From: an uncultured bacterium
GTDB lineage: Bacteria > Krumholzibacteriota > Krumholzibacteriia > LZORAL124-64-63
Reading direction: 5' to 3'
NCBI GenBank assembly: GCA_963727525.1
Contig: CAVSGO010000007.1
Coordinates: forward strand, 448,001-512,000
Length of the DNA: 64,000 bases
Shown here piece by piece: positions 46,915 through 62,121 of the stretch. The position numbers and the translations under genes were made by a program. The notes beneath the pieces were generated by a model that worked only from the letters and a program-made list of their open reading frames with translations, was not told the origin of the DNA and did not search any database. The first letter of the stretch is position 1. Each line of letters starts with the position of its first letter.

Positions 46915-47313
46915 ATGCTCCAGATCACCAGGCAAACGGAATACGCGATCCGCGGTCTGCAGGAACTGGCCCGCCGCAACGGCGATGCTCCCGTGCAGCT
47001 CAAGTCCATCGCGAAATCCTGCGATGTATCCGAGGCCTTCCTGGCCAAGATCTTCCAGATGCTCTCGCAGCAGCACATCGTCAAGAGCCATCGCGGCGTG
47101 AAGGGCGGCTTCAGCCTCGGTCGCAAGGCCGACGAGATCTCCCTGCGCGACATCGTCGAGGTGTGCGAGGGCGGGATCGCCCTCAACCACTGCCTGCGCC
47201 AGACGAATCGGTGCGAGAATGCGGACGATTGCAACATGAGTCAGGCCTGGTCCAAGGCCCAGAACGCTCTGGTCGGCGCGCTCGAGGAGACGTATCTCTC
47301 CGACCTGCTCTAG
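46915..47313 (+). CDS. Rrf2 family transcriptional regulator (three C-terminal Cys, probably Fe-S binding)
   Basis: TEYAIRGL, FLAKIFQML, SHRGVKGGFSL, CLRQTNRCENADDC. Confidence 0.9.
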   Translation: MLQITRQTEYAIRGLQELARRNGDAPVQLKSIAKSCDVSEAFLAKIFQMLSQQHIVKSHRGVKGGFSLGRKADEISLRDIVEVCEGGIALNHCLRQTNRCENADDCNMSQAWSKAQNALVGALEETYLSDLL

Positions 47314-48443
47314 GTCGGTAAGCTCTCTGGCGGGCCCTCGTGCGGACGAGGGCCCCCGATCTCCTCGCCAACGCTCCGATTTCCCGCATCCAGATGCCGA
47401 CGGCGTAGCTGTCCGCATGCCGCCGCGATATCCCGTCCCCCGCTCACGCGAATCGTCACCGGCACATCGGCCCGCCGGAGCACGTCCTGGAACGCGAGGA
47501 TACGCTCGCTCTCCGGTGCCCTCAATGCGTCGTCGTCCAGCTCGTTCAACGGGATGAGATTGACCTTGAACGGACGGTTCGCCAGGTGCTGTACGAGCAG
47601 TTGCGCCTGCGCGGGATCGTCGGTGCGCCCTGCGATCAGGACCCAGGCCACCGTCACGCGCCGGTTCATGCGTTGCGCGTGCATCTCCGCGGCTCGCAGT
47701 ACGGTCGCGATGGCGGCCTTGCCCGATACCGGCATGATCTTGCGTCGGGCCTGGTCGTCGGCACCACCCAGGCTGATCGTGAGGCCGACGGCGTGCCGCA
47801 ACTCGTTGAGCCGCGCCAGGCCATGCGGCGGTGCCGAGGTCGAGATCTGGATCCTCCGGACGGACATTCCCAGGCCGCTCGGCGCCACGAACGTGTCGAT
47901 GGCTCCGCTGACGGCGGCGAAGTTGTCGAGTGGCTCTCCCATCCCCATGAAGACCACGTTGAACTGGCGGTCGCCATGCTGAGGATAGGGATCGTCCAGG
48001 AGATCGCGCGCAAGTCTCAGCACCTGCTCGACGATCTCTCCCCGGCTGAGGTCCCGCACACGCCCACCGCGCGCCGTGGCGCAGAACCGGCAGGCCATCG
48101 CACAGCCCACCTGGCTCGATATGCAGAACGTCGCATGCTCCTCCATCGGGATGATCACGCTCTCGACGGTGTTTCCGTCGCGCAGCTCGAACAGGAACTT
48201 CCGCGTCCCGTCGCGACCCACGAGGCGTTCGACGCGCGCCAGGCCACTGGCATCGTAGTCTGCCGCCAGTTCATCCTTGAGCGCTTGCGGGAGGTTGCGC
48301 ATCTCCGACCAGTTGAAGGCAGACCGGGCGTAGAGCCAGTGTGCGAGCTGGCGGCCTCGATAGGATGCGTGCCCCGCCGCCGCCAGCAGGTCTGGCCACG
48401 CGTGGGGGTCATGGTCGCGGAGCAATGGCTTCAACGTGGTCAT
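47310..48443 (-). CDS. rlmN: 23S rRNA/tRNA adenine C2-methyltransferase (radical SAM)
   Basis: DGTRKFLF, CISSQVGCAMACRFC, FMGMGEP, VNLIPLN, IAAACGQL. Confidence 0.9.
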   Translation of the reverse strand: MTTLKPLLRDHDPHAWPDLLAAAGHASYRGRQLAHWLYARSAFNWSEMRNLPQALKDELAADYDASGLARVERLVGRDGTRKFLFELRDGNTVESVIIPMEEHATFCISSQVGCAMACRFCATARGGRVRDLSRGEIVEQVLRLARDLLDDPYPQHGDRQFNVVFMGMGEPLDNFAAVSGAIDTFVAPSGLGMSVRRIQISTSAPPHGLARLNELRHAVGLTISLGGADDQARRKIMPVSGKAAIATVLRAAEMHAQRMNRRVTVAWVLIAGRTDDPAQAQLLVQHLANRPFKVNLIPLNELDDDALRAPESERILAFQDVLRRADVPVTIRVSGGRDIAAACGQLRRRHLDAGNRSVGEEIGGPRPHEGPPESLPT

Positions 48444-48577
48444 TGGCACGGTTCATCTCGCCTCGGCGGGGACGGCCGTCCCGCCCTTGACACGGCCCGG
48501 TGCCCCGGGCAAGTTGAGTCGCAACTCGGGCAAGGTCACCGCGGTCGCGCTGATCCGCAAGCCGAAGGAGTGCATCC

Positions 48578-49942
48578 GTGCAGACGATCCTGGTGGTCGA
48601 CGACGAGGTCGCGATCCGCGAAACACTTGCCCAGATCTTGTCCTACGAGGGGTACCGCGTCCGCACTGCCGCCGACGGTCCCCGGGCACTGGCCGACCTC
48701 CAGGACGAAACGGCCGACGTGGTGCTGCTCGATGTCAAGATGCCCGGCATGGACGGGTTCGAGGTCCTCGCGCGGCTGGGCCGCGACTGGCCCCGACTGC
48801 CGGTCATCGTCATCTCCGGTCACGGCGACATCAAGACCGCCGTCGATGCCGTCAAGCAGGGCGCATACGACTTCCTCGAGAAACCTCTCGACCGCAATCG
48901 CCTCCTGGTCACGCTACAGAATTGCCTCGCCCACAGCCGTGTGGAGCGCGATCGCGAACGGCTGGCGGCCAAGGCCGGGCGCCGCGCACCCCTGATCGGG
49001 GAGTGCCCGGCCATGCACCAGGTCCGCGCCTTCATCGAGCGCGCAGCTCCGGCCAGCGGCACCGTCCTCATCACGGGCGAGAACGGCACCGGCAAGGAAC
49101 TCGTCGTGGCTGCCATCCACGCCGCGAGCCAGCGTCGCAATGGTCCGCTGATCGAGGTCAACTGCGCGGCGATCCCGAAGGACCTCGTGGAGAGCGAACT
49201 GTTCGGGCACGAGAAGGGCGCGTTCACTGGCGCCGACAAGTTGCGGGTCGGCAAGTTTGAGCAGGCAGACGGGGGGACGCTCTTCCTGGACGAGATCGGC
49301 GACATGAACGAGCAGGCGCAGGCCAAGGTGCTGCGTGCCGTGGAGGAGGGGCGATTCCAGCGCGTGGGCGGGAACGAGACGCTGCGGGTCGACGTCCGGA
49401 TCGTCGCCGCCACCAACCGTGACCTCACGCTGCCGGAAACGGGTTTCCGGCGCGACCTCTACTTCCGACTCAACGTCCTGTCTACGCACCTGCCGCCCTT
49501 GCGCGAGCGCGGTCACGACATCGATCTACTGCTCGCGCATTTCATGGCAACCCTCTCCGCGAACCTCAAGGTCAAGGCGAAGACCTTCGCGCCCGAGACA
49601 CTGGCGATCCTGCGCGGGTATGCCTGGCCGGGAAACGTCCGGGAACTGCGCAACCTCGTCGAGCGACTACTCATCCTTACCCCGGGCGATACGGTGCGAC
49701 CGGGCGACCTGCCGCTGTTGCCGGGCGCCGGCGACGGAGGTAAGGGCGAGTGGGACCTGTTGCGTTGCGCGGATTTCCAGGAGTTCAAGTCACGATCGGA
49801 GGGGCTCTATCTCCAGCACAAGTTGCGTGAGTTTCACTACAACGTCAGCCGGACAGCGGAGGCTCTGGCCATGCAGAGAAGCAACCTCTACAAGAAGATC
49901 GCCAAGTATGGTTTGCAAACTCAACCAGAGGACGAGACATGA
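48578..49942 (+). CDS. sigma54-dependent response regulator (REC-AAA+-HTH, NtrX-like)
   Basis: VVDDE, LLDVKMP, ISGHG, EKP; GENGTGKE, GAFTGA, FLDEIG, WPGNVREL; Fis-type HTH. Confidence 0.93.
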   Translation: MQTILVVDDEVAIRETLAQILSYEGYRVRTAADGPRALADLQDETADVVLLDVKMPGMDGFEVLARLGRDWPRLPVIVISGHGDIKTAVDAVKQGAYDFLEKPLDRNRLLVTLQNCLAHSRVERDRERLAAKAGRRAPLIGECPAMHQVRAFIERAAPASGTVLITGENGTGKELVVAAIHAASQRRNGPLIEVNCAAIPKDLVESELFGHEKGAFTGADKLRVGKFEQADGGTLFLDEIGDMNEQAQAKVLRAVEEGRFQRVGGNETLRVDVRIVAATNRDLTLPETGFRRDLYFRLNVLSTHLPPLRERGHDIDLLLAHFMATLSANLKVKAKTFAPETLAILRGYAWPGNVRELRNLVERLLILTPGDTVRPGDLPLLPGAGDGGKGEWDLLRCADFQEFKSRSEGLYLQHKLREFHYNVSRTAEALAMQRSNLYKKIAKYGLQTQPEDET

Positions 49943-49983
49943 CGTCCTGCGCACCATCCTTCAAATAATTATCGACGTACGTA

Positions 49984-50012
49984 TTGACGGCGAGGGGTCG
50001 TTCCAGTATGTT
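49984..50012 (+). promoter_or_regulatory. sigma70-type promoter of the small secreted peptide gene
   Basis: TTGACG-N17-TATGTT preceded by an AT-rich stretch. Confidence 0.65.
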
Positions 50013-50103
50013 CAAAGCAGAAAACGGCTTCTTGCAAGACTGCAAGAGGCATCCTCCCTCAAGCGGGCGGATTGCCCGCAAGCTCGTCGCTAAGGAGGAG
50101 GAC

Positions 50104-50427
50104 ATGAAGGGAGTCCTCACCGTCCTTGTCCTGACGGCCGCCCTGCTCGTTGCGGCTTCTCTGGACAGCGGCGTTGCTCTGGCCGTCGTCGATGATGCGC
50201 CGCAGGGACAACCTCAGGGTATCGAAGTCCCGCACGGCGTACCGATGGTCATGGGTGACATGTCGGGCGAAGGCAACGAGGGCGATCCGGACGACATCGG
50301 CGGTGGTTTCCGTTCGTCGGGTTCCGGGATCGTCCACGACGTTCCGGATCCGCCTCCCGGCGGGTACGATCTGATGGATCATCTGGTCACTGTCTTTGCA
50401 CGATACTGGTTCCTCTACGTGCGGTGA
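50104..50427 (+). CDS. Small secreted protein / candidate signalling pro-peptide (107 aa)
   Basis: Strong RBS AAGGAGGAG; Sec signal MKGVLTVLVLTAALLVAASLDSGVALA; acidic Gly/Pro-rich middle (GEGNEGDPDDIGGG); aromatic/hydrophobic C-terminus. Confidence 0.8.
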   Translation: MKGVLTVLVLTAALLVAASLDSGVALAVVDDAPQGQPQGIEVPHGVPMVMGDMSGEGNEGDPDDIGGGFRSSGSGIVHDVPDPPPGGYDLMDHLVTVFARYWFLYVR

Positions 50428-50463
50428 GCCGGCGCCCGAGAACGCCGGCTCTTCGCTTCATTT
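50426..50463 (+). terminator. Intrinsic terminator-like hairpin between the peptide gene and the regulator
   Basis: GAGCCGGCG-N8-CGCCGGCTC followed by TTCGCTTCATTT. Confidence 0.65.
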
Positions 50464-50493
50464 CACGATCTGCGATCCACCACTCGCCAGGGG

Positions 50494-53400
50494 ATGCAGG
50501 TTATGGGCGATCGGTTTGATGGATTCGATAGCTATCCGCCGGGGCGCGAAGGAATTCGACGTACCGACGGGATAAGCGAGTATGAGCGGCTCGAGGAGGT
50601 CGGGGATCTCCACTTCCAGGCCGCCGCGTACTCGACTGCGCTCGATTACTACCGTCAAATCCTGCCTGCCGCGGTTCTGGACCGCTTCTCTCCTGCCCGC
50701 GCACTCGCTATCCTGCGCAAGGCACTCAACGCGCATCTCAATCTCGGGCAGATGAAACAGGTGGACGTACTTCTCGTCCGCGCGCACGCCGTGCTGAAGA
50801 ACGGGGTCGATCTCGCGCCGGCCGAGCTGGCACGGGAGCGCGCCCTGTTCATGGTGCGGCAGGCCGTCCTGCTGATGCAACGGTCGGACCATCAGGCGGC
50901 ACTGGACGTCGCGAAGCGGGCCTTCGCGATTCTCGCTCTGACAGATTTCCATGCCGAGGTCGCAAACCTCCAGCTCATCATGGGCGGTTGCCACCAGCGT
51001 ATGGGGCGACTCGACAAGGCGGAGGAGTTCTATCTCGACAGCCTGAGTACATTCCGCCGCGTGGGCGACGAGGTCGGCGCCGCTTCGCTCTATGGCAACC
51101 TCGCCCTGCTCTACAAGGTCCGTTGCTGCTGGGGCAAGGCCCTCGATCTGATGGACAAGGCGATTGCGCTCGTGGAGAAGCACGGCGCGCCGCAGCTCCT
51201 GACGGGATTCTTTCTCAACCAGGGCCTCGTCTATCTGAAGGTGGGGCGGTTCGCCGAGGCGCAGCTCGTGTTCGACAAGAGTCTGCGGCTCTGCCGGAGC
51301 CTGGGCGACCAGATCCGCGAACCCAAGGTCCTGCTGGCCCTGGGGCGACTGGAATTCCTCGAGGGGCGCCTGGCGCGGGCCGAGGAGACGGTGCTGGCCG
51401 GCAAGGCGCTCGCCGAACGTCTGCGGATGCGCCGCGAGTCCGTGATCGCCGACGAGTACTTCGGCGATATCCAGCTCGGGCGTGCTGATCCGCAGCATGC
51501 GCTGGAAACCTACGGATTCGGACTGGAGAAGAACCGCGGACTCGCGCACGCGGGCGACCTCGAGGCCGAACTCCTGCGCCGGGTCGCCGAGGCTCAGCGT
51601 CAGCTCGGTCACCACGCCGACGCCATCGCAACGGCCCACGCGGCCATAGCGGCCTGCGAGGCGAGCGGGGAAGTCTACGAGTTCGGTTTCTGCCGTCTGA
51701 CCCTGGCGCATGCCTACGCGGCACAGGGTGACTGGGAGCAGGCCGACGCGCATTTCCGGGGGGCGATCGACATCTTCCGCGGGCAGCATCTCGATCGCGA
51801 ATGGTGCGACACCGTGCTGCAGTACCTCGAGACGCGCCTCGAGTCGGCCGACAAGCCGGTCCTGCTCCTTTTGCGCCGCTTTCTCATCGACGCCCAGGCC
51901 CAGGCCGCGGCCGAGATCGGCGATGTCACCCTGTACGACTGCTTGCGCGGGCTCGTTCGGGTGCAACTTCGACTCGGACTCTTCGACGATGCTCTGCTTA
52001 CCGTATTCGAACTCGAACGCCACGCGCGCGGGCTCGACGATCCCGAGCGCCTCACGCTCGCAGAGCGCCTGCGGCAGGTGGTCGAGGCCGGCATGGTCGG
52101 GGGCCTCGAGGAAGCTGGATCCCCGCTCGTCGCGCTCTCCGGAATTCCCGGGCTCTTCAGTGCCGCGGACGGTTCGTTGACCCGTAACCTCGGATCGGTC
52201 CTGACGGCGGTGCGCGAGAAGGTGGGCGCGGATGTGGGATTCCTCGCCCTCGGGGAGCCCGGCAAACCGGCCACGTGGGGTCCCGCCGCGCGTCAGGGCG
52301 TGACGGAAAATCTCGTCGGGCAATTGCTGCGCTGGTTCGCCGATGAACGCAACCGGGATGGCGGGGATCAGGCACTCCTCGTGTCCCGGGTTTCGCGGCA
52401 CGCTGCCCTCGGCCGCGCGGTTCCGGCGCTGGCGGAGAACGTGGCGAGCTGTGTGTTCATGCCGATCACGGTGCACGACCGCGTGTTTGGGTTCTTGTTT
52501 CTAGGGCGCACCGTGGCCGAAGACGTTGCTTGTTTCGACCAGCAGGCCCTCGACTTCCTCGCGACGTACATGGGATTCCTGGCCCTGTTCCTGACCGACA
52601 AGATGCACCCTGCGGCCGAACCTCTGACCGCCTCCGAAGCCGATACGTTCGGTAACGTGATCACCCGCAACGAGCAGATGCTCGATGTGCTCTTGCTCAT
52701 CCGCAAAGTCGCGCCGAGCGATCTGACCGTGCTTCTGCGCGGCGAGACGGGGACCGGCAAGGGGTTGCTCGCCTACGCCCTGCATGCGCTCAGCCGCCGC
52801 AGCGAGCGCCGGTTCGTGGCGATCAACTGCGCCGCGATTCCTGAGACGCTGCTGGAAAGCGAACTGTTCGGTCATCTCAAGGGCAGCTTCACGGGAGCGG
52901 ATGTCGACAAGAAGGGGCTTCTCGTAGAGGCCGAGGGCGGTACGGTGTTCCTCGACGAGATCGGGAAGATGCCCCTCACGATGCAGGGCAAGCTGCTGCA
53001 CTTCCTCGACACGAAGGTGGTGCGCCCGGTAGGCTCCGCCCAGGAACGGGCGGTGGACGTGCGCATCGTCTGCGCCTCGAAATCCGATCTGCGGCAGCTC
53101 GTCGAGTCGGGACGCTTCCTCGAGGATCTCTACTTCCGATTGCTCGATTTCCCGATCGTGGTACCACCTCTGCGCGAGCGACCGGACGACATCCCGCTTC
53201 TCGCTGGCCACTTCGTGCAGCGGTTCGCAGGCGAGCTCGCGACCGAGGCGCCCGAGATCGGCAACGCGTGCATGGATGCTCTCGTCCAGTTCGACTGGCG
53301 AGGCAACGTGCGAGAGCTGGAGAAATGCCTGAAACGCGCCATGATCCTGGCGCAAGGCGAACCCGTACTGCGCCCGGATCATCTGCCGCGCGAGATGGTG

Positions 53401-53595
53401 CCATATCTCGCCGGAGGCGGTGGGGCCGACGTGATGCCACTTCGCGATATGCTGGCTGCCGTCGAGTCGCGTGAGATTGCGCGAGCCTTGCGCATGACGG
53501 CCGGCAACAAGGCGGCTGCGGCGCGCCGTCTTCAGATTTCCTATCCGAACCTTCTCAAGAAGATCCGCTTCTTCGGCCTCGCGGACGAGACCTGA
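50494..53595 (+). CDS. TPR-GAF-AAA+-HTH sigma54 enhancer-binding protein (no receiver domain)
   Basis: About 500 aa of TPR-like helices (LYGNLALLY, LNQGLVYLKVGRFAEA); GAF-like segment (SCVFMPI...FGFLFL...FDQQALDFL); GETGTGKG, ESELFGHLKGSFTGA, FLDEIG, DLYFRL, WRGNVRELE; HTH GNKAAAARRLQIS. Confidence 0.9.
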   Translation: MQVMGDRFDGFDSYPPGREGIRRTDGISEYERLEEVGDLHFQAAAYSTALDYYRQILPAAVLDRFSPARALAILRKALNAHLNLGQMKQVDVLLVRAHAVLKNGVDLAPAELARERALFMVRQAVLLMQRSDHQAALDVAKRAFAILALTDFHAEVANLQLIMGGCHQRMGRLDKAEEFYLDSLSTFRRVGDEVGAASLYGNLALLYKVRCCWGKALDLMDKAIALVEKHGAPQLLTGFFLNQGLVYLKVGRFAEAQLVFDKSLRLCRSLGDQIREPKVLLALGRLEFLEGRLARAEETVLAGKALAERLRMRRESVIADEYFGDIQLGRADPQHALETYGFGLEKNRGLAHAGDLEAELLRRVAEAQRQLGHHADAIATAHAAIAACEASGEVYEFGFCRLTLAHAYAAQGDWEQADAHFRGAIDIFRGQHLDREWCDTVLQYLETRLESADKPVLLLLRRFLIDAQAQAAAEIGDVTLYDCLRGLVRVQLRLGLFDDALLTVFELERHARGLDDPERLTLAERLRQVVEAGMVGGLEEAGSPLVALSGIPGLFSAADGSLTRNLGSVLTAVREKVGADVGFLALGEPGKPATWGPAARQGVTENLVGQLLRWFADERNRDGGDQALLVSRVSRHAALGRAVPALAENVASCVFMPITVHDRVFGFLFLGRTVAEDVACFDQQALDFLATYMGFLALFLTDKMHPAAEPLTASEADTFGNVITRNEQMLDVLLLIRKVAPSDLTVLLRGETGTGKGLLAYALHALSRRSERRFVAINCAAIPETLLESELFGHLKGSFTGADVDKKGLLVEAEGGTVFLDEIGKMPLTMQGKLLHFLDTKVVRPVGSAQERAVDVRIVCASKSDLRQLVESGRFLEDLYFRLLDFPIVVPPLRERPDDIPLLAGHFVQRFAGELATEAPEIGNACMDALVQFDWRGNVRELEKCLKRAMILAQGEPVLRPDHLPREMVPYLAGGGGADVMPLRDMLAAVESREIARALRMTAGNKAAAARRLQISYPNLLKKIRFFGLADET

Positions 53596-53845
53596 TCCCT
53601 GGAATCAACGATCGACGCCCAGGCATTGCCTTGCTGCCGCATGGAACGGATTGCGCCGCGGGGCTCCCAGGGTATAAATCTTTTTGTCATCCCAACTCAT
53701 TGTATCCAAGCGAGTTACGATTCGTGCGGGCTGATTGTAAATTCGTTTTATAGTGCGGCCCGGACACTCGCGCGCCAAAGCACTTTTCTGCTCTGCAACG
53801 TATTTTATTGTAACGACTTATAAAACAGAATAGGTCTGCTGTTTC

Positions 53846-53861
53846 CGGCATGACTTCTGCA
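53846..53861 (+). promoter_or_regulatory. sigma54 (-24/-12) promoter
   Basis: CGGCATGACTTCTGCA: GG(53847-8)-N10-GC(53859-60), with an AT-rich IHF-like site just upstream. Confidence 0.6.
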
Positions 53862-53871
53862 GATAGGGGAT

Positions 53872-54186
53872 CCGAAGGGGTGAGTAGTAGGGAACGAACC
53901 CACTTCATGGAATCAAGATCGTGACTTGGAGGCGCGGAGCGGAGACTCGCGCATACCGGCAAACGCGGGAGACGTTTTCATCATGTAGGTTCGCAACGAG
54001 GACTTAAAGAGGTGGGGTCTTTACATTCCTCGAGTGCGAACGTGGAGAACGACCGCAACACGACCTTCAAGCACGATCTTGGTCTACGTAAGAATTTTGT
54101 GAGCGAAGGGCCCTGGTTGGTTCTGAATTGGCGAGATTCAGAACCAAGATGCCGTTCTCGGCGGCGAGGGCTCTTCGCTATTCTTT
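53872..54186 (+). ncRNA. Candidate structured non-coding RNA (about 315 nt)
   Basis: Starts at the predicted sigma54 TSS; long-range helix 53914-53932/54064-54081; several inner hairpins; 3' three-way junction closed by a 13-bp stem and followed by ATTCTTT; no convincing ORF. Confidence 0.6.
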
Positions 54187-54452
54187 GTCCCCTCCGTTTC
54201 GCCGTCACCGGACGTGTGTTCCCCGGGTTGATCCCGCCGTCTCCAAAGATGGACGCTGTCCTCCGATCCGCACAGCCGCGACCCGATCGGCGACCGCACA
54301 TCGCGACCGTGACCGAGTACCTCATGGCCCAAGTGTCCGGATCCGGGTGTCATGGCAAGATCTTGTCTTATAGTGTTTTATACCGCGTATGAGCTCGGGT
54401 TGGCCTCGCTAGAAGGGCCGCCCCGACCCGGTATGGCGGCATGGGCCGGCGC

Positions 54453-54467
54453 TGGCACGAAGCCTGC
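54453..54467 (+). promoter_or_regulatory. sigma54 (-24/-12) promoter of the lipoprotein-DUF4384 operon
   Basis: TGGCACGAAGCCTGC, near consensus TGGCACG-N4-TTGC; about 45 nt upstream of the ATG at 54510, which has an AGGGAG RBS. Confidence 0.75.
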
Positions 54468-54509
54468 GATATGGTCGAGAAACACGAGGCGCCCTCGAGG
54501 AGGGAGATC

Positions 54510-55469
54510 ATGACTCGATCCGCAAGAATCCGGCACCGCGACATCGGCCTGCTGCCTCTGGGGTTAGCCCTCGCGCTGGCGTGGGCGCTATCGGGCTGCA
54601 GCAGTGATGATTGCGCCACGTGCGTCGAACCGGCACCCGTCGCTCCGACCAGCGTGTACTCGGAGAGCGGCGACAACCAGATCACGCTCTACTGGAGCGA
54701 TTTCGCCGAGATCTACAGCACCGTCGATCGCTACCAGGTCTTCAGCCGTTTCTACCAGAACGGCGACGAGAACGACCCGAACCGAACGTTCTATCTTATC
54801 GACGAGGTGGCCGTCGGCCAGAACTATGATCCCGACCTCCACCAGTACTCGTATGTCGACAATGCTGCGGACGTGGAGAACGGCGTCGACCTCGAGTATG
54901 CCGTGCGGGCGGTGTCGGCCTCGGGGCAGGCGGGCGATCTGAGCTACGAGCTGGTCATCGACACGCCGCTGCCGATGAGCGCGAGCCCCGTCGAGCTGTT
55001 CGATGCGGGCGGCGCCAATGGCAACCTCGGCGGCTTCGATTTCAGCCGGCTCGACAACGGGCGGGTGGATCCCAATGCCGTCGGAACCTCGGCCGACGTG
55101 AGGGTCGTATTCCGTGACGGCGTGCCATACCTCGAGGCCGTGCGGACCGAGGTGCATCTGCAGGATTTCGGTGTTTTCTCGGGCGGCAACGGGCAGCTCG
55201 ATTTCGCGGGGGTGTCCTGGGCACCGACCGATGGATATTCTGCGGCTGGTGTCCTCGAGATGATCGCCGGACACATCTACGTGGTCGAGATCACGAATGA
55301 ACCGGCCGGGGAGACCCACTACGCAAAGCTGGGCGTGACGAGCATCGTGCCAGCGACCCAGTCGGTCGAGGTGATGTGGGCCTACCAGCTCGTCAATGGT
55401 TTGCAGGAACTGCGTGTTCCTGACGAGCCGTCGCCGCGAGTGGACGAGTACGTCCCGATCAAGCTCTAG
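54510..55469 (+). CDS. Lipoprotein with FN3-like N-terminal domain and beta-rich C-terminal domain
   Basis: Lipobox LSGC; PVAPTSVYSESGDNQITLYW...YAVRAVS (FN3-like); GGFDFS...GHIYVV...HYAKL...WAYQ. Confidence 0.75.
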   Translation: MTRSARIRHRDIGLLPLGLALALAWALSGCSSDDCATCVEPAPVAPTSVYSESGDNQITLYWSDFAEIYSTVDRYQVFSRFYQNGDENDPNRTFYLIDEVAVGQNYDPDLHQYSYVDNAADVENGVDLEYAVRAVSASGQAGDLSYELVIDTPLPMSASPVELFDAGGANGNLGGFDFSRLDNGRVDPNAVGTSADVRVVFRDGVPYLEAVRTEVHLQDFGVFSGGNGQLDFAGVSWAPTDGYSAAGVLEMIAGHIYVVEITNEPAGETHYAKLGVTSIVPATQSVEVMWAYQLVNGLQELRVPDEPSPRVDEYVPIKL

Positions 55470-55505
55470 GGCCGCACGACGCGGTCACGACCAGGGAGGC
55501 ACGAC

Positions 55506-57365
55506 ATGACACACAGGAATGCGGACCAGCAACGACATCGCGCGTTGGTGCCCGGCCACTCGCCGGTACCTGGATTCGCGATGGTACGGGGCCTCGTGGT
55601 GATCGCCCTCCTGGTGGTTGCGGCCAGCGTGGCGGTCGGCCAGCCCGAAACGGACAAGAGTGCCCCGGCGAACACCGCCGACGCGGCTGCGCGCTATGCC
55701 GCGCAGGACCTGCGCGTCAACGTATGGGTCGACAAGGGCGGCGATGAGGTATATCGCCGCGGCGAGCTGATGAGCGTGTCGTTCCAGGCCAATGCGGACG
55801 CCTACATCGTCGTCTACCGGATCGACGCGGATGGCCGCGTGGAGATCCTCTGGCCGATCAGTCGCTACAACGATGGCTTCGCCTTCGGTGGGCACGAGTA
55901 CACGCTACCGACGAATGGTTCCGATCGGCTACGCACGGCGAGCGACGAGGGCGTGGGCTACGTGCAAGTGCTTGCCTCGCGCTATCCCTTCGATCTGCGC
56001 GCTCTCGACGTCGATTTCCACCAGGAGCCCTCGCAGCCGATCCACGACTACTACGTGACCGGTGATCCGTTCCTGGCCATGAACGAGGTCAACTTCGCCA
56101 TCACCGGGCTCGATGACCCGGGCGAGTTCGTGGTGAGCAACTACGCTTCCTACTACGTCCACCGTCAGGTCGATCATCCGCGTTACCTCTGTAGCCAGTG
56201 TCACCTCAATGACGGCTATGCGGATCGTCCGTACGATGCGGTCTGCACGATCGAGATCCACCACGACTACGGCTGGGCCAACGACTGGTGGGACACCTAC
56301 CGCTACTATCCCGTGTACTACTACCCGGCGTTCTACTACGTCGATCCGTGGTGGGGATCGCCCTGGGTGTCGTACTGGTACCGGCCGTGGTATCGCTGGC
56401 CTCTGGCCGTGGGCATCTACGACTGGTCGTACACGTGCTACGACTGGCGCTACTCGCCCTACTGGCGGGGCGACTGCTACACGGTGTCGCGCGATCTGCC
56501 GCATCGTTACCGGCCGCTCGACAAGACCCGCGTGGCCGGCGTCGACAAGCATGAAGGAAATGTCGGTTCGCGGCTGGTCACGGCGCGGCGACCGGGAAAT
56601 GACGTGGTCGCGGCCATGAAGTCTCGCGAGGCCGTGCGTAGCGATCGGGTGCGCGACGCTGTACGGAAGAACGATGTAGTGGCAGGCGGCCGGACATACC
56701 GGGACGTGAGCCCCGAGTCGCGGTCGCAGGGAAAGTTCACGCGTGACGGCCAGGGACGGACCTCCCCTGGCCTGCGCGTGCCGGAGAGGGGCGGGAGCGG
56801 TACGGCGCGTGCCGGCGACCGGGGTTCCCGCCCCACCGCCGACCGGCCGATCAGCCCCGCCGGCGGTCGAAAAGTCCTCGGCCCCCGCGTGGAACCGGGC
56901 ACGCCGGATCGCAGCGAGCGAGTCCAGGATACCCGTAGCGGGCGCGAGAGCGGTACGAATCGCCAGACCGGTGACCGCCGAACCATCAGGCCGGTCGAGC
57001 CTCGTCAAGGCTCGGTCTGGTCGGGCCGACGCGGGTCGAGCTCGCGGGGTTCCGAGCCTGCCCGCCCGGCGGAACCGGCGCGCGGCGGTAGCAGTGGCAA
57101 ATCTGGCAGCAGCGGCTCGTCTGGTCGCGTGGAACGCCCCTCCTCGCCGAGTCGCAGCGAAGGCACGTCGCAGAACCGCGAATCCTCGTCCAGTGGCCGA
57201 AGCAGCCACTCGAGCGGCAGCCGCGGCAGTTCCGTCAAGTCTTCGGGGTCGTCGCGCGGATCGTCGCCGGCGCAATCCTCGGGCGGTTCGGCGCGCTCCT
57301 CCTCGGGTACGAGCCGCGGGAGCTCGGGTCGCAGCAGCAGCCAGACCAGGGGAGGCCGGCGCTAG
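55506..57365 (+). CDS. DUF4384-domain exported protein with W/Y-rich segment and S/G/R-rich disordered tail
   Basis: Signal peptide; VWVDKG...YRRGE...DAYIVVYRIDADGRVEILWP (DUF4384-like); WGSPWVSYWYRPWY; low-complexity C-terminus; start may be 55581. Confidence 0.75.
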   Translation: MTHRNADQQRHRALVPGHSPVPGFAMVRGLVVIALLVVAASVAVGQPETDKSAPANTADAAARYAAQDLRVNVWVDKGGDEVYRRGELMSVSFQANADAYIVVYRIDADGRVEILWPISRYNDGFAFGGHEYTLPTNGSDRLRTASDEGVGYVQVLASRYPFDLRALDVDFHQEPSQPIHDYYVTGDPFLAMNEVNFAITGLDDPGEFVVSNYASYYVHRQVDHPRYLCSQCHLNDGYADRPYDAVCTIEIHHDYGWANDWWDTYRYYPVYYYPAFYYVDPWWGSPWVSYWYRPWYRWPLAVGIYDWSYTCYDWRYSPYWRGDCYTVSRDLPHRYRPLDKTRVAGVDKHEGNVGSRLVTARRPGNDVVAAMKSREAVRSDRVRDAVRKNDVVAGGRTYRDVSPESRSQGKFTRDGQGRTSPGLRVPERGGSGTARAGDRGSRPTADRPISPAGGRKVLGPRVEPGTPDRSERVQDTRSGRESGTNRQTGDRRTIRPVEPRQGSVWSGRRGSSSRGSEPARPAEPARGGSSGKSGSSGSSGRVERPSSPSRSEGTSQNRESSSSGRSSHSSGSRGSSVKSSGSSRGSSPAQSSGGSARSSSGTSRGSSGRSSSQTRGGRR

Positions 57366-57398
57366 GCATCGTCGGGAGTACATCGTCGTCATGGGTAT

Positions 57399-57582
57399 TG
57401 TGTTGGTGTCTTTTCCCCCCATCACCCGGCTGACCGGAAGGGACTCGGATCCTCGCAGAGGTTGGCAGCCAAGGAGAGGGAAGAGCACGGAAGGACGGTC
57501 GGGGACCACCAACACATGTGGAAGGGTCCGGAGCGAAGCTGTTGTCGATCAGGGGTGGCAATGTCGGAGCCCGGACCCTTCC
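57399..57582 (+). ncRNA. Candidate structured RNA element (3' UTR or small RNA), GGA-rich
   Basis: TGTGTTGGTG(57399-408)/CACCAACACA(57507-16) closes a multibranch domain; GGAAGGGTCCGG(57520-31)/CCGGACCCTTCC(57571-82) is a perfect 12-bp stem; strand inferred from the upstream operon. Confidence 0.45.
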
Positions 57583-57616
57583 CAGATTCTGAAGACTCGA
57601 GCCGCGGCGGGAGTGT

Positions 57617-57645
57617 TTGACCCCCGCCCGGCGTGTTCTTATCAT
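57617..57645 (+). promoter_or_regulatory. sigma70-type promoter
   Basis: TTGACC-N17-TATCAT. Confidence 0.6.
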
Positions 57646-57697
57646 GGCCGGCACCTCGCATCGGACGGAATCCGACATCCCCGAAAGGTCCAGGTCG

Positions 57698-60600
57698 ATG
57701 GCAACCTCCGACCGCCGCGCCCGTTGCCCGTTTTCCATTGCTGGTCGCGCGTTCCTCGTTCTCCTCATCGCCGCTATGGTGGCGACCACCCTGGCGCGCC
57801 CGGTGCGGCCCGCGCCGCCGTCCAGGCTCCCGGTCGACGCGGTTCCCCGCTATGTCGACAAGTTCCGCCCGCTGCAGGACGACGGTTCGACCGGTCTGCA
57901 GCAGCGGCGACTCGCCGGCGAAAAGGCGCCGGCGATGTTGCACGCCATCGTCCTGATGTGCGACTTCGCCGACAGCGCCTTCTACGGGCGTCCGGGTCTC
58001 TCGCCGGAGGCACCGGCGACATCGACTCAGAGCGATTTCTACTACGCCACGCACGATTCCCTGTACTACGCCCACCAGATGCGAGACGTCAGCGACTACT
58101 TCACGGCCGTCAGCGATGGGCAGTTCGCGCTGACGCGCGACGTCCTGGGCACCATCGTGCACCTTCCGCATCCGATGGCGTATTATGGTAACGACCCGAC
58201 CGAAGGTGAGCAGACGGTGCTGCTGGCGGCCGATGTGGTGGCCGCCGTCGATCCGCTCGTGGACTTCTCGCTCTATGACACAGTCGTGCTCATCCATGCC
58301 GGTGCCGGCGAGGAGACCGACATCCTCGACAACTCGCCCGAACAGATCTACAGCACCTATCTGGGCCCCGAAGACTTCGCGGGTGCAGTGGACGACTCGG
58401 TCCTCACCACTCCCTACATCCCGACCGACGATCAGCCGGCAGGTACCGGTGTACAGAACGTGCTCGTGCTGCCAGAGAACGAATTCCAGGATCCGTATGG
58501 CAGCTTCAAAGGCTACTTCGGATCGCTCGGTGTGTACTGCTTCGAGGTTGGGCTGCGCCTCGGCATGCTCTCGCTCAGCGACTTCACACCCTCTGGCCAT
58601 CCGGACAGCCAGGGGATCGGCGAGTTCGGCCTGATGGGCTATGGGCTCTTCGTCGGGGCCGGCTTCATTCCGCCACATCCCATTGCGTTCAACAAGCTGC
58701 TGATGGGGTGGCTCGACCCCTTCCCGGTCGACCCGACACCGGGAGCGACCTGGACCCTCGGACCAGCCGAACACACGCATGGCGCCGACGCCTGCGCGCG
58801 CGTGGACATCACGGGGCGCGAATACTGGCTGCTCGAGTATCGCCTCCAGGATCCCGATGCGAACGGCATCTTCAGCTTCACGGGAGACCTGAACGGCAAC
58901 AACGTACCCGACTTCTACGATGCGGACAGTGCCTACGGCGATGGTCGACCGACGAGTTATTTCGATCCGGCCACGGATCAACGGGAGTGGCTCACCGGAG
59001 CCGAGTGGGACTTCTTCATGAGCGAGAACACCGCGCGGCCGGACGGTGTCAAGGGTGCCGGTAGCGGTATCTACATCTGGCACGTCGACGAGGGCGTGAT
59101 CCAGGCGGCTTTCGGAGCGGCGAGCAATCTCTTCAACGCCGATGCTTCGCACAAGAGTGTGGATCTCGAGGAGGCCGACGGCATCCAGGACCTGGACACG
59201 CGGCAATCATCGCCGTGGCTCCTGGGCGGTGATTTCGACAGTTTCCGGGGCGAGGATGCGCCCGTTTTCGGGCCTGCGACGCGTCCGTCCACGGAGACGG
59301 CGAATGGTGCGCGCACCGGCATCGTGTTCGATGAGATCTCCGATGTCGCCGACTCCACCTATACCTATCACGCCGGGACGGACTCCGCCTACACCGGCCT
59401 GCACTACGCCGACGCGATGGCGTTCCGCTGCCGTCGCGCCGAAGCGTTGGTGGGCGCACCGACCCTGGCGATGACGGCGCTTCTCGACGGGATCGATCTG
59501 GGCGGATGCCAGCCTCTCGCCGCCGACCTCGATCAGGACGGGGCGGGCCAGGAGGTGCTGGCCGTGGCCGCCGATGGTGCTGTTGTGGTGCTCGATCCCC
59601 CGTCTCCAGTTCCTGTGGTGCAGTACGTCGTGGATAGCGGTGACACGGTGCGTTTCCGGCAGCCTGCCGCGGCGGGGCGTCTGGCCGGTACGCCGACGAC
59701 CGGCGGGCTCGATATCGTGGTCGCCAGCGATCGCGGCGTGCACTGGCTACGATACGAAGGTGGCGTCGTCAGCACACAGGGCACCGATCCGACGGGACTC
59801 GTCACGGCTGGCGTTTCTTGCCCGCAGCCGGCCGTGCTCTGGCCTGCCGACGGCGGGGACGGCGATGGATTCGCCGCCGAGCGCCCCGTACAGATTCGCG
59901 CCGTGGACCGCCGCGCCGATGCGGATCATCTCACGGTGGCCGACGCGACGAGCGTGATCGCGGATCTCGCCGTCCCGGGAGGGCGTATCCAGGGGCCGCT
60001 CGTGGTCGCTGGCGGCCACCTGTGGGCCGCTGCCGCGGACACGGCGGCGGGTACGGCGGTGCTCCTCGTGCAGCCGCTGACCGACCCGCAGGCCGCGCCG
60101 GCCGTGGTCCCATTGCCGCTCATGCCCGGCACGCTGCCGCTGGCCGTGACCAGGCTCGGCACCGATTTCGCGGTGGCCATCGTCGATACGGGCGGACGCG
60201 CGGCCACCGCCTGGCTGGACGAGACCACGTTGCGTGAGTCGCATCCGATTCAGCTATGGGGACGAGATCTCGAGGTGCGCTCGCCCATCGGATCGGAATT
60301 CGCGTTCGTGGGCGGGGCCGTTTGCGGGCGAGCGGCGCCGACGGGGGTCTGGTCGCTGGGCTGGCCGCTCTGGCTTGCCGACCCCGTCGAGGCGGCGACG
60401 CGAGTCGAGCGGGCCGCGGTGCCGCTGGCCTTGACGGTGAGCGGTGCCGCTGGACCGGATGTCCTCTTCGTCAGCCGCGATGGCCGCCTGTTCCGCTGTA
60501 CGGCAGGCGGCGAGGTGCGCGCGGGCTGGCCTCTCGCGGGACCGGGCGAATCGGCGGGCACACCCGTCGTGGCCGATGTGGTCGGCGATGGCGGGCTCGA

Positions 60601-61084
60601 TCTGATCACCTTCGGCGCCTTCGACCGCATCGCAGGAATCGAGGCGGGGCAACTCGTCACACGGCCGGTGTCGCGGATTGAGGTCTTCACGGGGCTGGCT
60701 GATGTGGGCGTCATTTCCGTGATGTGGTCCGGGAATCCGTGGCGGGCGGACGCCCTGCTGGCGAGCGGCGTGGCCGCCCCCGGCCCTTCGGGGGCCGCGC
60801 TCGTGGCCGGCACGCATTTCTGTTATCCGAACCCACTGCGAGCAGGCCCATTGCACGTGCGCGGTCAGGCCGGTCAGGATGGCCAGGCGCGGGCGTGGTT
60901 CTACAACCTCGAGGGGGAGGAGGTCGCCGTCTCGCCGTGGCAAGGCGTGGTGGCGGCAGCACCCTTCGAGATCACGCTGGATCTCGGTACGATCGCTTCA
61001 GGCCTGTACGTGTGCCGACTCGAGGTCGAGAGCGCGCGTGGCGGCAGCGAGACGAGTGTCAAGACCGTCGCCGTGGTGCGGTGA
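57698..61084 (+). CDS. M6-peptidase-like secreted protein lacking HEXXH, with FG-GAP-like repeats and FlgD/T9SS-type CTD
   Basis: DFAD, IHAGAGEE, LGVYCFEVGLRLGMLSLSD...GIGEFGLMGYG, EYWLLEYR, GIYIWHVDE, VDLEEADG; ADLDQDG; YPNPLR...ASGLY CTD. Confidence 0.75.
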   Translation: MATSDRRARCPFSIAGRAFLVLLIAAMVATTLARPVRPAPPSRLPVDAVPRYVDKFRPLQDDGSTGLQQRRLAGEKAPAMLHAIVLMCDFADSAFYGRPGLSPEAPATSTQSDFYYATHDSLYYAHQMRDVSDYFTAVSDGQFALTRDVLGTIVHLPHPMAYYGNDPTEGEQTVLLAADVVAAVDPLVDFSLYDTVVLIHAGAGEETDILDNSPEQIYSTYLGPEDFAGAVDDSVLTTPYIPTDDQPAGTGVQNVLVLPENEFQDPYGSFKGYFGSLGVYCFEVGLRLGMLSLSDFTPSGHPDSQGIGEFGLMGYGLFVGAGFIPPHPIAFNKLLMGWLDPFPVDPTPGATWTLGPAEHTHGADACARVDITGREYWLLEYRLQDPDANGIFSFTGDLNGNNVPDFYDADSAYGDGRPTSYFDPATDQREWLTGAEWDFFMSENTARPDGVKGAGSGIYIWHVDEGVIQAAFGAASNLFNADASHKSVDLEEADGIQDLDTRQSSPWLLGGDFDSFRGEDAPVFGPATRPSTETANGARTGIVFDEISDVADSTYTYHAGTDSAYTGLHYADAMAFRCRRAEALVGAPTLAMTALLDGIDLGGCQPLAADLDQDGAGQEVLAVAADGAVVVLDPPSPVPVVQYVVDSGDTVRFRQPAAAGRLAGTPTTGGLDIVVASDRGVHWLRYEGGVVSTQGTDPTGLVTAGVSCPQPAVLWPADGGDGDGFAAERPVQIRAVDRRADADHLTVADATSVIADLAVPGGRIQGPLVVAGGHLWAAAADTAAGTAVLLVQPLTDPQAAPAVVPLPLMPGTLPLAVTRLGTDFAVAIVDTGGRAATAWLDETTLRESHPIQLWGRDLEVRSPIGSEFAFVGGAVCGRAAPTGVWSLGWPLWLADPVEAATRVERAAVPLALTVSGAAGPDVLFVSRDGRLFRCTAGGEVRAGWPLAGPGESAGTPVVADVVGDGGLDLITFGAFDRIAGIEAGQLVTRPVSRIEVFTGLADVGVISVMWSGNPWRADALLASGVAAPGPSGAALVAGTHFCYPNPLRAGPLHVRGQAGQDGQARAWFYNLEGEEVAVSPWQGVVAAAPFEITLDLGTIASGLYVCRLEVESARGGSETSVKTVAVVR

Positions 61085-61188
61085 CGACCAAGGTTTGGTT
61101 GCCGCGCGATCCGTCGCGGCGTAGAGTTGGACGCGGGAGAATGACAACGGGCGGCGCGTTCCGACCCGGACGCGAGAGGAATGGAACC

Positions 61189-62121
61189 ATGCGGTACTCG
61201 AAGATGAAGACGCTGATGGCTAGCCTAGCTCTGGTAGTGCTAGCCGCCGGGCCGGCGCTGGCGGGACATCCCGGCGACGCGGGTTTCCTGTCCCTGCGAC
61301 TGGGTGTCGGGGCGCGTGAGGCGGCCATGGGCGGGGCTGGTGTGGCCACGACCGAGGGAGCGTCGGCGGCCTACTGGAACCCGTCGAACCTGGCCTTCCT
61401 CGATCACGGCACCTCGCTGATGCTGCAGCACCATCGCTGGCTGGGGCTGTTCGACCACAACGCGGCGGCGGTGACTCACGTGACGCCTTCGGGTGTGTTC
61501 GGCGTGCTGTTCAGCGGCCTCTATGCCGACAACATCGATCGCTACGGCACGGAGCCCGTCGGCATCCCCGAGGGGACATTCGCGCCCTACGATGTGGTGC
61601 TGGGGGTGAGCTACTCGCGTCGGATCGGTGACGATCTGGCGGTGGGGCTGCAGGCGAAGATGCTCTACGAGAAGATCGATGTTTACAGCGATACGGGCTG
61701 GGCGTTCGACCTCTTCGTCACGCACAGGGCACCGATGATCCCGGGTCTCACGTTCGCGGCCAGCGCCACGAACCTGGGAGGCCAGATGACGCTGATCGAC
61801 GTGCCGTTCGATCTGCCGCGGACGATCACGGTCGGACTCGGCTACTCGCCCGAAACGGGAATTCTCGCGCAGCGCCTCACAGTGACCGGCGAGGCGGCGT
61901 TCCTGAACGACACGAACGAGAAGGCCCACCTCGGTCTCGAGGTGAAGGTGGTGCCGGAGCTCGCGCTGCGTGCCGGCTATCGTGTGAACTACACCTCGCA
62001 GGGGCTCACGGCCGGCGCCGGTTTCCGCTACAGCAACGTGGGCGTGAACTATGCCTACGAGGACATCACCGAGAATGGTCTCGACCCCGGCCACAAGTTC
62101 TCGCTGGAGTTCCTCTTCTAG
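61189..62121 (+). CDS. PorV/PorQ family outer-membrane beta-barrel protein
   Basis: Signal peptide; FLSLRLGVGAREAAMG...AYWNPSNLA; alternating beta-strands, LRAGY, terminal HKFSLEFLF. Confidence 0.85.
   Translation: MRYSKMKTLMASLALVVLAAGPALAGHPGDAGFLSLRLGVGAREAAMGGAGVATTEGASAAYWNPSNLAFLDHGTSLMLQHHRWLGLFDHNAAAVTHVTPSGVFGVLFSGLYADNIDRYGTEPVGIPEGTFAPYDVVLGVSYSRRIGDDLAVGLQAKMLYEKIDVYSDTGWAFDLFVTHRAPMIPGLTFAASATNLGGQMTLIDVPFDLPRTITVGLGYSPETGILAQRLTVTGEAAFLNDTNEKAHLGLEVKVVPELALRAGYRVNYTSQGLTAGAGFRYSNVGVNYAYEDITENGLDPGHKFSLEFLF

Follow-up and report, generated by a model that had tools for sequence, protein, structure and literature searches.

A 64,000-nucleotide stretch of DNA from the lineage Candidatus Krumholzibacteriota (the window) carries, side by side, the genes of a small exported protein and of a large sigma-54 activator with an array of tetratricopeptide repeats (TPRs). 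We propose, with a probability of roughly 40%, that the two proteins form a dedicated ligand-receptor pair, operating in a circuit similar to those of the RRNPP peptide receptors. What the analysis shows directly is the conserved pairing of the genes, the exported-protein features of the small product, covariation between a short acidic motif in it and one part of the TPR array, and the promoters and the RNA structure found at the locus (Table 1). A first-pass annotation had described here a Sec-type open reading frame (ORF) of 107 aa with an acidic core, an aromatic C-terminus and a strong ribosome-binding site, followed 66 nt downstream by a 1033-aa protein consisting of TPR, GAF, AAA+ and helix-turn-helix (HTH) domains and lacking a receiver (REC) domain. 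The ORF and its translation bear out the former description, and Pfam matches together with a GSFTGA loop bear out the latter.

The association of the two genes is conserved across the relatives that were examined. A small signal-peptide ORF (91-119 aa) lies upstream of the activator gene in all 33 loci from relatives, and likewise in 77 of 77 loci that have at least 450 nt of upstream DNA (from 80 loci in named genome records); the two sets overlap and come to 69 distinct cassettes after near-identical ones are removed. Over the loci examined the small ORF encodes 91-126 aa. The strict pattern of the acidic motif is matched in 69 of the 77 loci, and most of the others hold near variants, in keeping with the expectation of the first-pass annotation that homologous activators should be accompanied by a small signal-peptide ORF with a GDPD-type core. 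In 69 of 72 loci the small ORF is immediately preceded by the end of a response-regulator gene in the same orientation, and in the three loci that have no adjacent response-regulator gene the small ORF still stands beside the TPR activator. This genome has no second copy.

Orthologues of the activator that are full length and 35-60% identical were found in 33 of the 40 relatives searched. When 151 genomes sampled from the phylum were searched with a profile of its TPR-GAF part, 147 proved to have the gene, among them all 117 that are at least 90% complete, mostly with one match per genome. A scan of contigs with the TPR part as a single sequence gave 67 pattern matches, none of which was confirmed, and an alignment-based scan succeeded. 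The TPR activator is a core single-copy regulator of the phylum. For the small protein, a word-indexed protein search returned a single relative at 45% identity, because the protein evolves fast, as the synteny shows. A profile built from 32 members was run against 1.84 billion cluster representatives and matched 254 of them at E <= 0.001. All but one of the best 150 of these matches are stand-alone proteins; the 149 are 96-138 aa long (median 107 aa).

The N-terminus of the small protein is Sec-like, with MK, a hydrophobic core and V-A-L-A followed by VV, and a strong GGAGG-type ribosome-binding site precedes the ATG. Judged by sequence features only, a basic n-region with a hydrophobic core is found in 134 of the 149 members and a small-x-small site after the core in 148 of them. 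The middle of the protein is rich in Gly, Asp and Pro and holds the acidic core GEGNEGDPDDIGGG; aromatic and hydrophobic residues make up the C-terminal end. In the AlphaFold2 model, residues 2-19 and 88-106 form helices and residues 20-87 have no regular structure (low confidence). Neither Pfam nor NCBIfam contains a matching family. Disorder in the model outside the signal peptide and the C-terminal helix, and the stand-alone nature of 149 of the best 150 matches, answer the question raised by the first-pass annotation of whether the small ORF might be a fragment of a known folded protein: it is not.

Conservation is confined to three parts of the small protein, namely the signal peptide, the motif and one amphipathic helix. 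The motif consensus, [DE]-G-D-P-[DG]-D-[AIL]-[GI]-x-G-[NFY]-[RG], is present in 147 of the 149 small family representatives, and G60 within it is nearly invariant (alignment A1). A helix of the amphipathic aromatic type is retained in all type A orthologues. In a circularly permuted clade, type B (L029-L031, L096, L101, L104 and L106-L114; the range L104-L114 is also cited), the helix comes after the signal peptide and the motif later, reading G-D-A-D-D-Y-A-N-G-R/K and followed by a charged tail. This permutation in one clade indicates that the motif and the helix are separable, as expected of short functional elements. The two are 17-40 residues apart, with the motif before or after the helix depending on the clade; given this spacing and order, and the lack of a family match, a PEP-CTERM/exosortase sorting signal, in which a C-terminal PEP motif runs straight into a transmembrane helix and a basic cluster, was considered for the small protein and rejected.

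Some further observations concern individual members of this family. In the orthologue at L013:1080-1409, and in an identical protein of L087, the signal peptide ends in a lipobox-like L-A-A-C, so this version may be a lipoprotein. The small ORF of L038 and that of L084 look frameshifted or truncated in these two assemblies. Look-alikes of 50104-50424 in a protein atlas are unnamed proteins of about 110 aa that are commonest in Candidatus Eiseniibacteriota (score 0.91, 203 of 256 features shared), from which it appears that the family may reach beyond Krumholzibacteriota.

The presumed receptor combines a long repeat array with a canonical sigma-54 activation module. Pfam matches comprise TPR_12 (E 2e-21) and other TPR families over residues ~120-430, GAF_2 at 568-699 (27.1 bits, just below the 28.6 cut-off), Sigma54_activat (PF00158) at 723-888 with E 3.7e-63, AAA_lid_14, and HTH_8 at 987-1025; no Pfam match to Response_reg was found in this protein. 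The Walker A sequence is GETGTGKG and the sigma-54 contact loop GSFTGA. No NCBIfam equivalog cut-off is reached, the best score, below cut-off, being to NorR. Judged by its AAA+ domain with a GAFTGA-type loop, its HTH, the rpoN gene (one in this genome) and the -24/-12 promoters nearby, the protein is a bona fide sigma-54 enhancer-binding protein. It has the GAF-AAA+-HTH core in common with NifA, NorR and FhlA, from which it differs by an extra TPR superhelix of about 520 residues before the GAF domain. The AlphaFold2 model of the TPR part has a predicted local distance difference test (pLDDT) score of 87.7 and is an all-helical superhelix over residues 27-540 (nt 50572-52113), about 515 aa in length.

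Comparison of this superhelix with known structures by Foldseek places it nearest to LGN/Pins. The best fold matches, all of them sensors of peptides or other ligands, include RapF (29.4), MalT domain III (29.1) and NprR (28.2). Rap and NprR, two of the receptors named by the first-pass annotation, do appear among them, with values tied with those of other TPR sensors. By sequence profile the TPR part is nearer to kinesin light chain and Pins (1e-14), and Rap follows only at ~1e-4. Kinesin light chain and Pins bind acidic linear motifs.

The motif and the TPR array diverge together, as had been anticipated for peptide and receptor, and they do so in a region-specific manner. In 31 non-overlapping nearest-neighbour sister pairs taken from the 69 distinct cassettes, the divergence of the motif region was correlated with that of 50-aa activator windows, with the divergence of residues 560-1025 controlled for. 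Motif divergence follows that of the TPR array in its N-terminal half, with a partial rho of 0.50 for residues 76-125 (permutation p 0.001), 0.62 for 176-225 (p 0.0002) and 0.58 for 226-275 (p 0.0002), and values about 0, not significant, for the windows spanning 376-975. When residues 76-275 are merged, rho is 0.56-0.63 under four different normalisers; the distal TPRs (376-545) give -0.04 to 0.21 against the motif. No consistent covariation with the activator was seen for the C-terminal helix or the signal peptide (partial rho of the tail -0.26 to 0.43, with saturating distances). As an outside control, the C-terminus of the neighbouring response regulator yields a rho of 0.31 (p 0.06) against the motif; with this C-terminus controlled for, residues 76-275 retain 0.51 (p 0.004), the p-values for this merged window being optimistic because it was picked post hoc after the window scan. 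The best single-window p multiplied by the 20 windows is about 0.004.

These results bear on a different explanation, in which the exported protein is a periplasmic accessory that acts on an unlinked membrane sensor kinase, this kinase phosphorylates the neighbouring response regulator, and the TPR activator senses something else. The order of the cassette recalls glmY-qseE-qseG-qseF (PMC6075780, PMC8745638), and the compartment mismatch between ligand and receptor would be avoided. The response regulator, which precedes the small ORF at nearly all loci, lacks an adjacent kinase: among the flanking genes inspected around 48578-49942 (rlmN-like, Rrf2, glycosylase and peptidases) there is no histidine kinase. 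However, this account leaves unexplained why the motif covaries with TPR residues 76-275 and weakly with the response-regulator C-terminus, and why the small ORF remains next to the TPR gene at loci where the response regulator lies apart. A lipobox occurs only in the one orthologue of L013. We therefore regard a periplasmic accessory role as quite unlikely.

Returning to the ligand-receptor pair, the circuit can be pictured as follows. The small gene would be transcribed from its own conserved sigma-70 promoter and its product exported by Sec, and the N-terminal half of the TPR superhelix would recognise the acidic motif of 10-12 residues (EGDPDDIGGGFR) in the disordered middle of that product. 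Occupancy of the TPR array would be relayed via the GAF domain and would set AAA+ assembly and the opening of sigma-54 promoters, of which two, P1 and P2, are predicted behind the activator gene. P1, with its upstream dyads, would give rise to a structured RNA of ~315 nt, and P2 may respond too, leading to a lipoprotein and a surface operon linked to the type IX secretion system (T9SS). The motif would be freed by proteolysis outside the cytoplasm and re-imported as a peptide, an RRNPP-like logic with a sigma-54 output, and what the circuit senses would be either cell density or periplasmic conditions. Given that the ligand is exported and the receptor cytoplasmic, proteolytic release outside followed by peptide re-import is the likeliest route, and the presence of three Opp/Dpp-type binding proteins in this genome means that an import route exists in principle. 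The binding and its sign, the processing, the re-import and the assignment of activators to promoters are steps that we infer.

Modelling of the TPR domain with its peptide partner, one of the checks suggested by the first-pass annotation, provides weak support for the pairing. Prediction of a complex between TPR residues 1-560 and the mature protein gave a median score of 0.44 (0.44, 0.44 and 0.61), the best of three controls scoring 0.00; the runs share at least 29% of contacts, and the partner has a pLDDT of 40-47. Of 80 solved complexes, 58 reach the mark applied to such predictions, as do 2 of 110 mismatched pairs. However, only 7 of the 80 solved complexes, but both mismatches, do so with scores of 0.60 or less; the score obtained here falls in this range, in which most passes are wrong, and no interface was returned.

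Several further points weigh against the ligand-receptor reading. The receptor is cytoplasmic and the ligand exported, which amounts to a compartment mismatch. The fold scores of the TPR model are generic for helical repeats, with Rap tied with APPBP2 and APC5. Chance acceleration of one lineage, confined to the motif and to TPR residues 76-275, could in principle account for the covariation. No consistent match to a sigma-54 promoter was found before the small ORF in the loci scanned, and thus there is no obvious auto-induction loop. Whereas an RRNPP-type private signal diversifies fast, the motif is conserved phylum-wide and the cassette belongs to the single-copy core; a universal single-copy cassette with such a motif would suit a housekeeping role in sensing the envelope or export better than private cell-to-cell signalling.

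Another explanation is an export-coupled switch, in which the TPR array would bind the motif on the cytoplasmic precursor and Sec export would remove it, so that the circuit measures export capacity or envelope stress. FlgM and ExsE are regulators that are secreted to free their partner, and to our knowledge there is no precedent for the general Sec pathway being used in this way. Such a switch would explain the same synteny, covariation and weak complex support with the fewest extra parts, dispensing with protease, importer, processing and re-import. The constitutive-type sigma-70 promoter and strong ribosome-binding site of the small gene are in line with it, the regulated genes are envelope and T9SS-linked, and a phylum-wide motif suits an internal sensor. 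What speaks for a post-export role of the mature protein instead is the presence of small-x-small signal peptidase I sites in all but one of the 149 members, together with the conserved helix, and on the whole we consider an export-coupled switch unlikely.

The transcription signals around the small ORF agree in part with what had been described. Its own sigma-70 promoter, as claimed by the first-pass annotation, was called by the promoter scan, and all 21 family loci that were aligned keep its -35 TTGAC and the TA of its -10. The same annotation had placed a terminator behind the small ORF and deduced from it an excess of peptide over receptor. A GC-rich 9-bp hairpin is indeed present at the stop codon, but it was not called by the terminator scan, and the orthologous intergenic regions between small ORF and activator have a stable fold (z < -2) in just 4 of 34 cases. 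A terminator as a general feature of this position was accordingly rejected, and the supposed excess of peptide does not hold in general. The gap between the two genes showed no conserved promoter either, and with the hairpin uncalled and unconserved the activator is probably co-transcribed with the small ORF.

Co-transcription would also be in accordance with the absence of any regulatory link, the small protein being a component of the envelope whose gene just happens to lie on the activator's transcript. Yet the 1:1 linkage across the phylum, the conservation limited to the motif, the region-specific covariation and the weak complex support are unexpected for a passenger, which makes this explanation improbable.

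Downstream of the activator gene, 31 of 34 loci have a P1-type match 193-315 nt after the stop codon; of the other three, L030 has a doubtful one (+14) and two lack any. At 29 of the 34 loci there is also a P2-equivalent match, 686-1147 nt from the stop and in most cases TGGCACGAAG-like. Two sigma-54 promoters had been said to follow the activator immediately, and P1 lies within the range then described (49984-54186), but P2, though conserved, lies beyond its end. Candidate activator sites accompany P1: a dyad of the form T(G/A)TAAA-N5-6-TTTA(T/C)AG occurs at about -110 and/or -175 of P1 in 18 of 32 loci (mean 0.5 and at most 3 in shuffled regions). The same type of dyad is all but missing elsewhere: of 28 regions preceding P2 one has it, and of 32 preceding the small ORF none does. 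A search for a conserved dyad upstream of P2 found none. Between the dyads and P1 there is a AACTTGTTG...CAACAAGTT-like element that resembles a site for integration host factor (IHF), and a second AT-rich dyad lies ~65 nt upstream of 53736-53753. That P2 has neither the dyads nor the IHF-like element suggests that P1 and P2 are served by different activators.

The region from P1 to P2 does not appear to encode protein, since a coding reading was rejected on the grounds that conserved nucleotide blocks fall in different frames across loci. On comparative evidence, a conserved structured RNA behind a conserved sigma-54 promoter is confirmed, which upholds the sigma-54-driven RNA of the first-pass annotation. 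In an alignment of 19 sequences, 32 of 42 consensus pairs show compensatory changes. Paired cells amount to 90.8%, a value that none of 500 shuffles attains (77.6% in shuffles) and that falls to 35-54% with partners slid, and the covariation score is 0.493 versus 0.10-0.19 in slid controls. The 3' end consists of a long AAGAGCC...GGCUCUU stem followed by a T-run, and the loops GGUGGGG and GGCGAG are invariant. The RNA is single copy in this genome, and a search of Rfam 15 with window positions 47000-58000 gave no match for it at E <= 1.

A conserved element, CCAC...CUCGCC(A/G)(A/G)GGGA, stands directly before the activator start and includes the ribosome-binding site (50470-50493; the same place in L004-L028 and L036). 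Its CUCGCC is the exact complement of the RNA loop GGCGAG, and CCAC(C) is complementary to part of GGUGGGG. Leader and loop motifs are both found in 24 loci. Four loci have one of the two, namely L018 the leader motif, its RNA being cut by the contig end, and L022, L029 and L034 the loop motif; another 4 have neither. Because the GGCGAG loop complements the CUCGCC before the ribosome-binding site of the activator, the RNA may feed back on the translation start of the activator; the leader element may serve such feedback on translation, or may be a CsrA-type site. Whole-molecule energies of RNA-leader duplexes are no better than those with shuffled leaders, and the minimum-energy duplex uses both motifs in 9 of the 24 loci. 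A strongly conserved CAGGGAAC block of the RNA itself resembles a CsrA site. As for a CsrB/RsmZ-like sponge, the RNA alignment has only one strongly conserved GGA-type block, though CsrA is encoded in the genome (G000:C7:1012664-1012816, L117).

Taken to its full extent, the ligand-receptor reading would make the cassette a phylum-wide switch by which a diderm exports a pro-protein and re-imports an acidic decapeptide, and by which the TPR enhancer-binding protein fires both the RNA and the T9SS-linked operon, with the RNA possibly feeding back. In this complete form it is rather doubtful.

With regard to the RRNPP systems (Rap/Phr, NprR/NprX, PlcR/PapR, PrgX and AimR/AimP), a signature of five criteria has been formulated, namely a propeptide of 10-100 aa (validated ones 21-50 aa), Sec export, a receptor of 250-500 aa, TPRs and gene adjacency (PMC10075063). 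Sec export (as read from the signal peptide), TPRs and adjacency are all found here, whereas the propeptide, at about 107 aa against the 21-50 aa of validated ones (PMC10075063), and the receptor, at 1033 aa against 250-500 aa, are both too long. The output differs as well, being an XRE-type HTH or a phosphatase in RRNPP receptors and GAF, a sigma-54 AAA+ domain and a Fis-type HTH in this activator. Moreover, the cassette has an internal, phylum-wide motif, a diderm host and single-copy core genes, in contrast to the variable pherotypes and accessory nature of RRNPP, and the similarity of its TPRs to Rap (E ~1e-4) is of a kind generic for TPRs. Hence the RRNPP-like sigma-54 module of the first-pass annotation is supported in part, by synteny, covariation and weak complex support, but not as regards family membership, for which receptor size, output, propeptide length and core conservation do not fit. 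The system is best described as a bacterial enhancer-binding protein with a TPR input and a linked exported ligand candidate, which is not a member of the RRNPP family but perhaps works like one.

The arrangement of activator and RNA genes has parallels elsewhere. In Vibrio, the gene of the sigma-54 activator LuxO is followed by that of a sigma-54-dependent regulatory RNA, Qrr, and in Pseudomonas crcZ reportedly lies directly downstream of cbrB. CbrB-CrcZ likewise joins a sigma-54 activator to a sigma-54-dependent RNA with upstream activator sites (PMC5113210, PMC6296734). There is no sequence or Rfam relation to either system, and the activator described here has a TPR-GAF input rather than a receiver domain. 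In the QseE/QseG/QseF-glmY system of Enterobacteriaceae, a small exported protein is likewise encoded between regulators of an envelope-related sigma-54 small RNA (PMC6075780, PMC8745638). QseG, however, is a folded outer-membrane lipoprotein acting on a kinase in the periplasm, while the small protein studied here is disordered, has no lipobox or linked kinase, and covaries with a cytoplasmic TPR array.

If the motif is read by the TPR array, the cassette unites two signalling principles usually regarded as separate, joining an exported peptide and a cytoplasmic TPR receptor, as in Bacillota and phages, with the ATP-driven sigma-54 activation typical of diderms. If the peptide is also released and taken back up, this would be the first RRNPP-type export/re-import signalling outside monoderms and the first coupled to sigma-54. 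Krumholzibacteriota, which have no cultured model and no known regulators, would gain a core circuit consisting of a ligand candidate, a receptor, promoters, an RNA and a target operon, and every piece of it is testable in Escherichia coli with synthetic DNA and peptides. At the level of titles and abstracts, the literature on TPR enhancer-binding proteins, on the phylum and on RRNPP in Gram-negatives yielded no published description of the cassette.

Table 1. Positions in the window of the genes, protein segments, promoters and RNA of the cassette and of the first gene behind it.
Feature	Position	Strand	Basis
NtrC-type response-regulator sigma-54 activator (REC-AAA+-HTH), cassette gene 1	48578..49942	+	Pfam Response_reg, Sigma54_activat, HTH_8
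Sigma-70-type promoter of small ORF, TTGACG-17-TATGTT, ~90-nt leader	49984..50012	+	called by promoter scan
Small exported protein, 107 aa: signal peptide 1-27, disordered acidic linker, motif, C-terminal amphipathic helix	50104..50427	+	ORF, translation
Conserved acidic motif E59-R70, EGDPDDIGGGFR (E-G-D-P-D-D-I-G-G-G-F-R), candidate ligand	50278..50313	+	family conservation, covariation with TPR
C-terminal amphipathic aromatic helix, residues 88-106	50365..50421	+	AlphaFold2, pLDDT ~82-88
GC-rich 9-bp hairpin overlapping small-ORF stop, possible attenuator	50426..50451	+	read from sequence
TPR-GAF-AAA+-HTH sigma-54 activator without REC, 1033 aa	50494..53595	+	Pfam
Candidate upstream activating dyad, TGTAAA-N6-TTTATAG-like, 110 nt before P1	53736..53753	+	family recurrence
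Sigma-54 promoter P1 (GG-N10-GC), predicted driver of RNA gene	53846..53861	+	-24/-12 match
Structured non-coding RNA, ~315 nt, long terminal stem and T-run	53872..54187	+	start inferred from P1
Sigma-54 promoter P2, TGGCACGAAGCCTGCG	54453..54468	+	pattern match
Predicted lipoprotein, 319 aa, first gene behind P2	54510..55469	+	signal peptide ending in Cys lipobox-like site

The genes behind P2 begin with the predicted lipoprotein, for which neither Pfam nor NCBIfam gave a family match, and continue with a DUF4384 protein, an M6-like protein and a PorV/PorQ family protein. Within 57617-62121, the M6-like protein matches the NCBIfam model 'T9SS-dependent M6-like inactivated metalloprotease' below cut-off, and the PorV/PorQ family match is above cut-off, in agreement with the PorV reported earlier for this DNA. 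The ORFs of the M6-like and PorV/PorQ proteins, as listed, overlap by ~360 nt, which indicates that the second probably starts later than listed.

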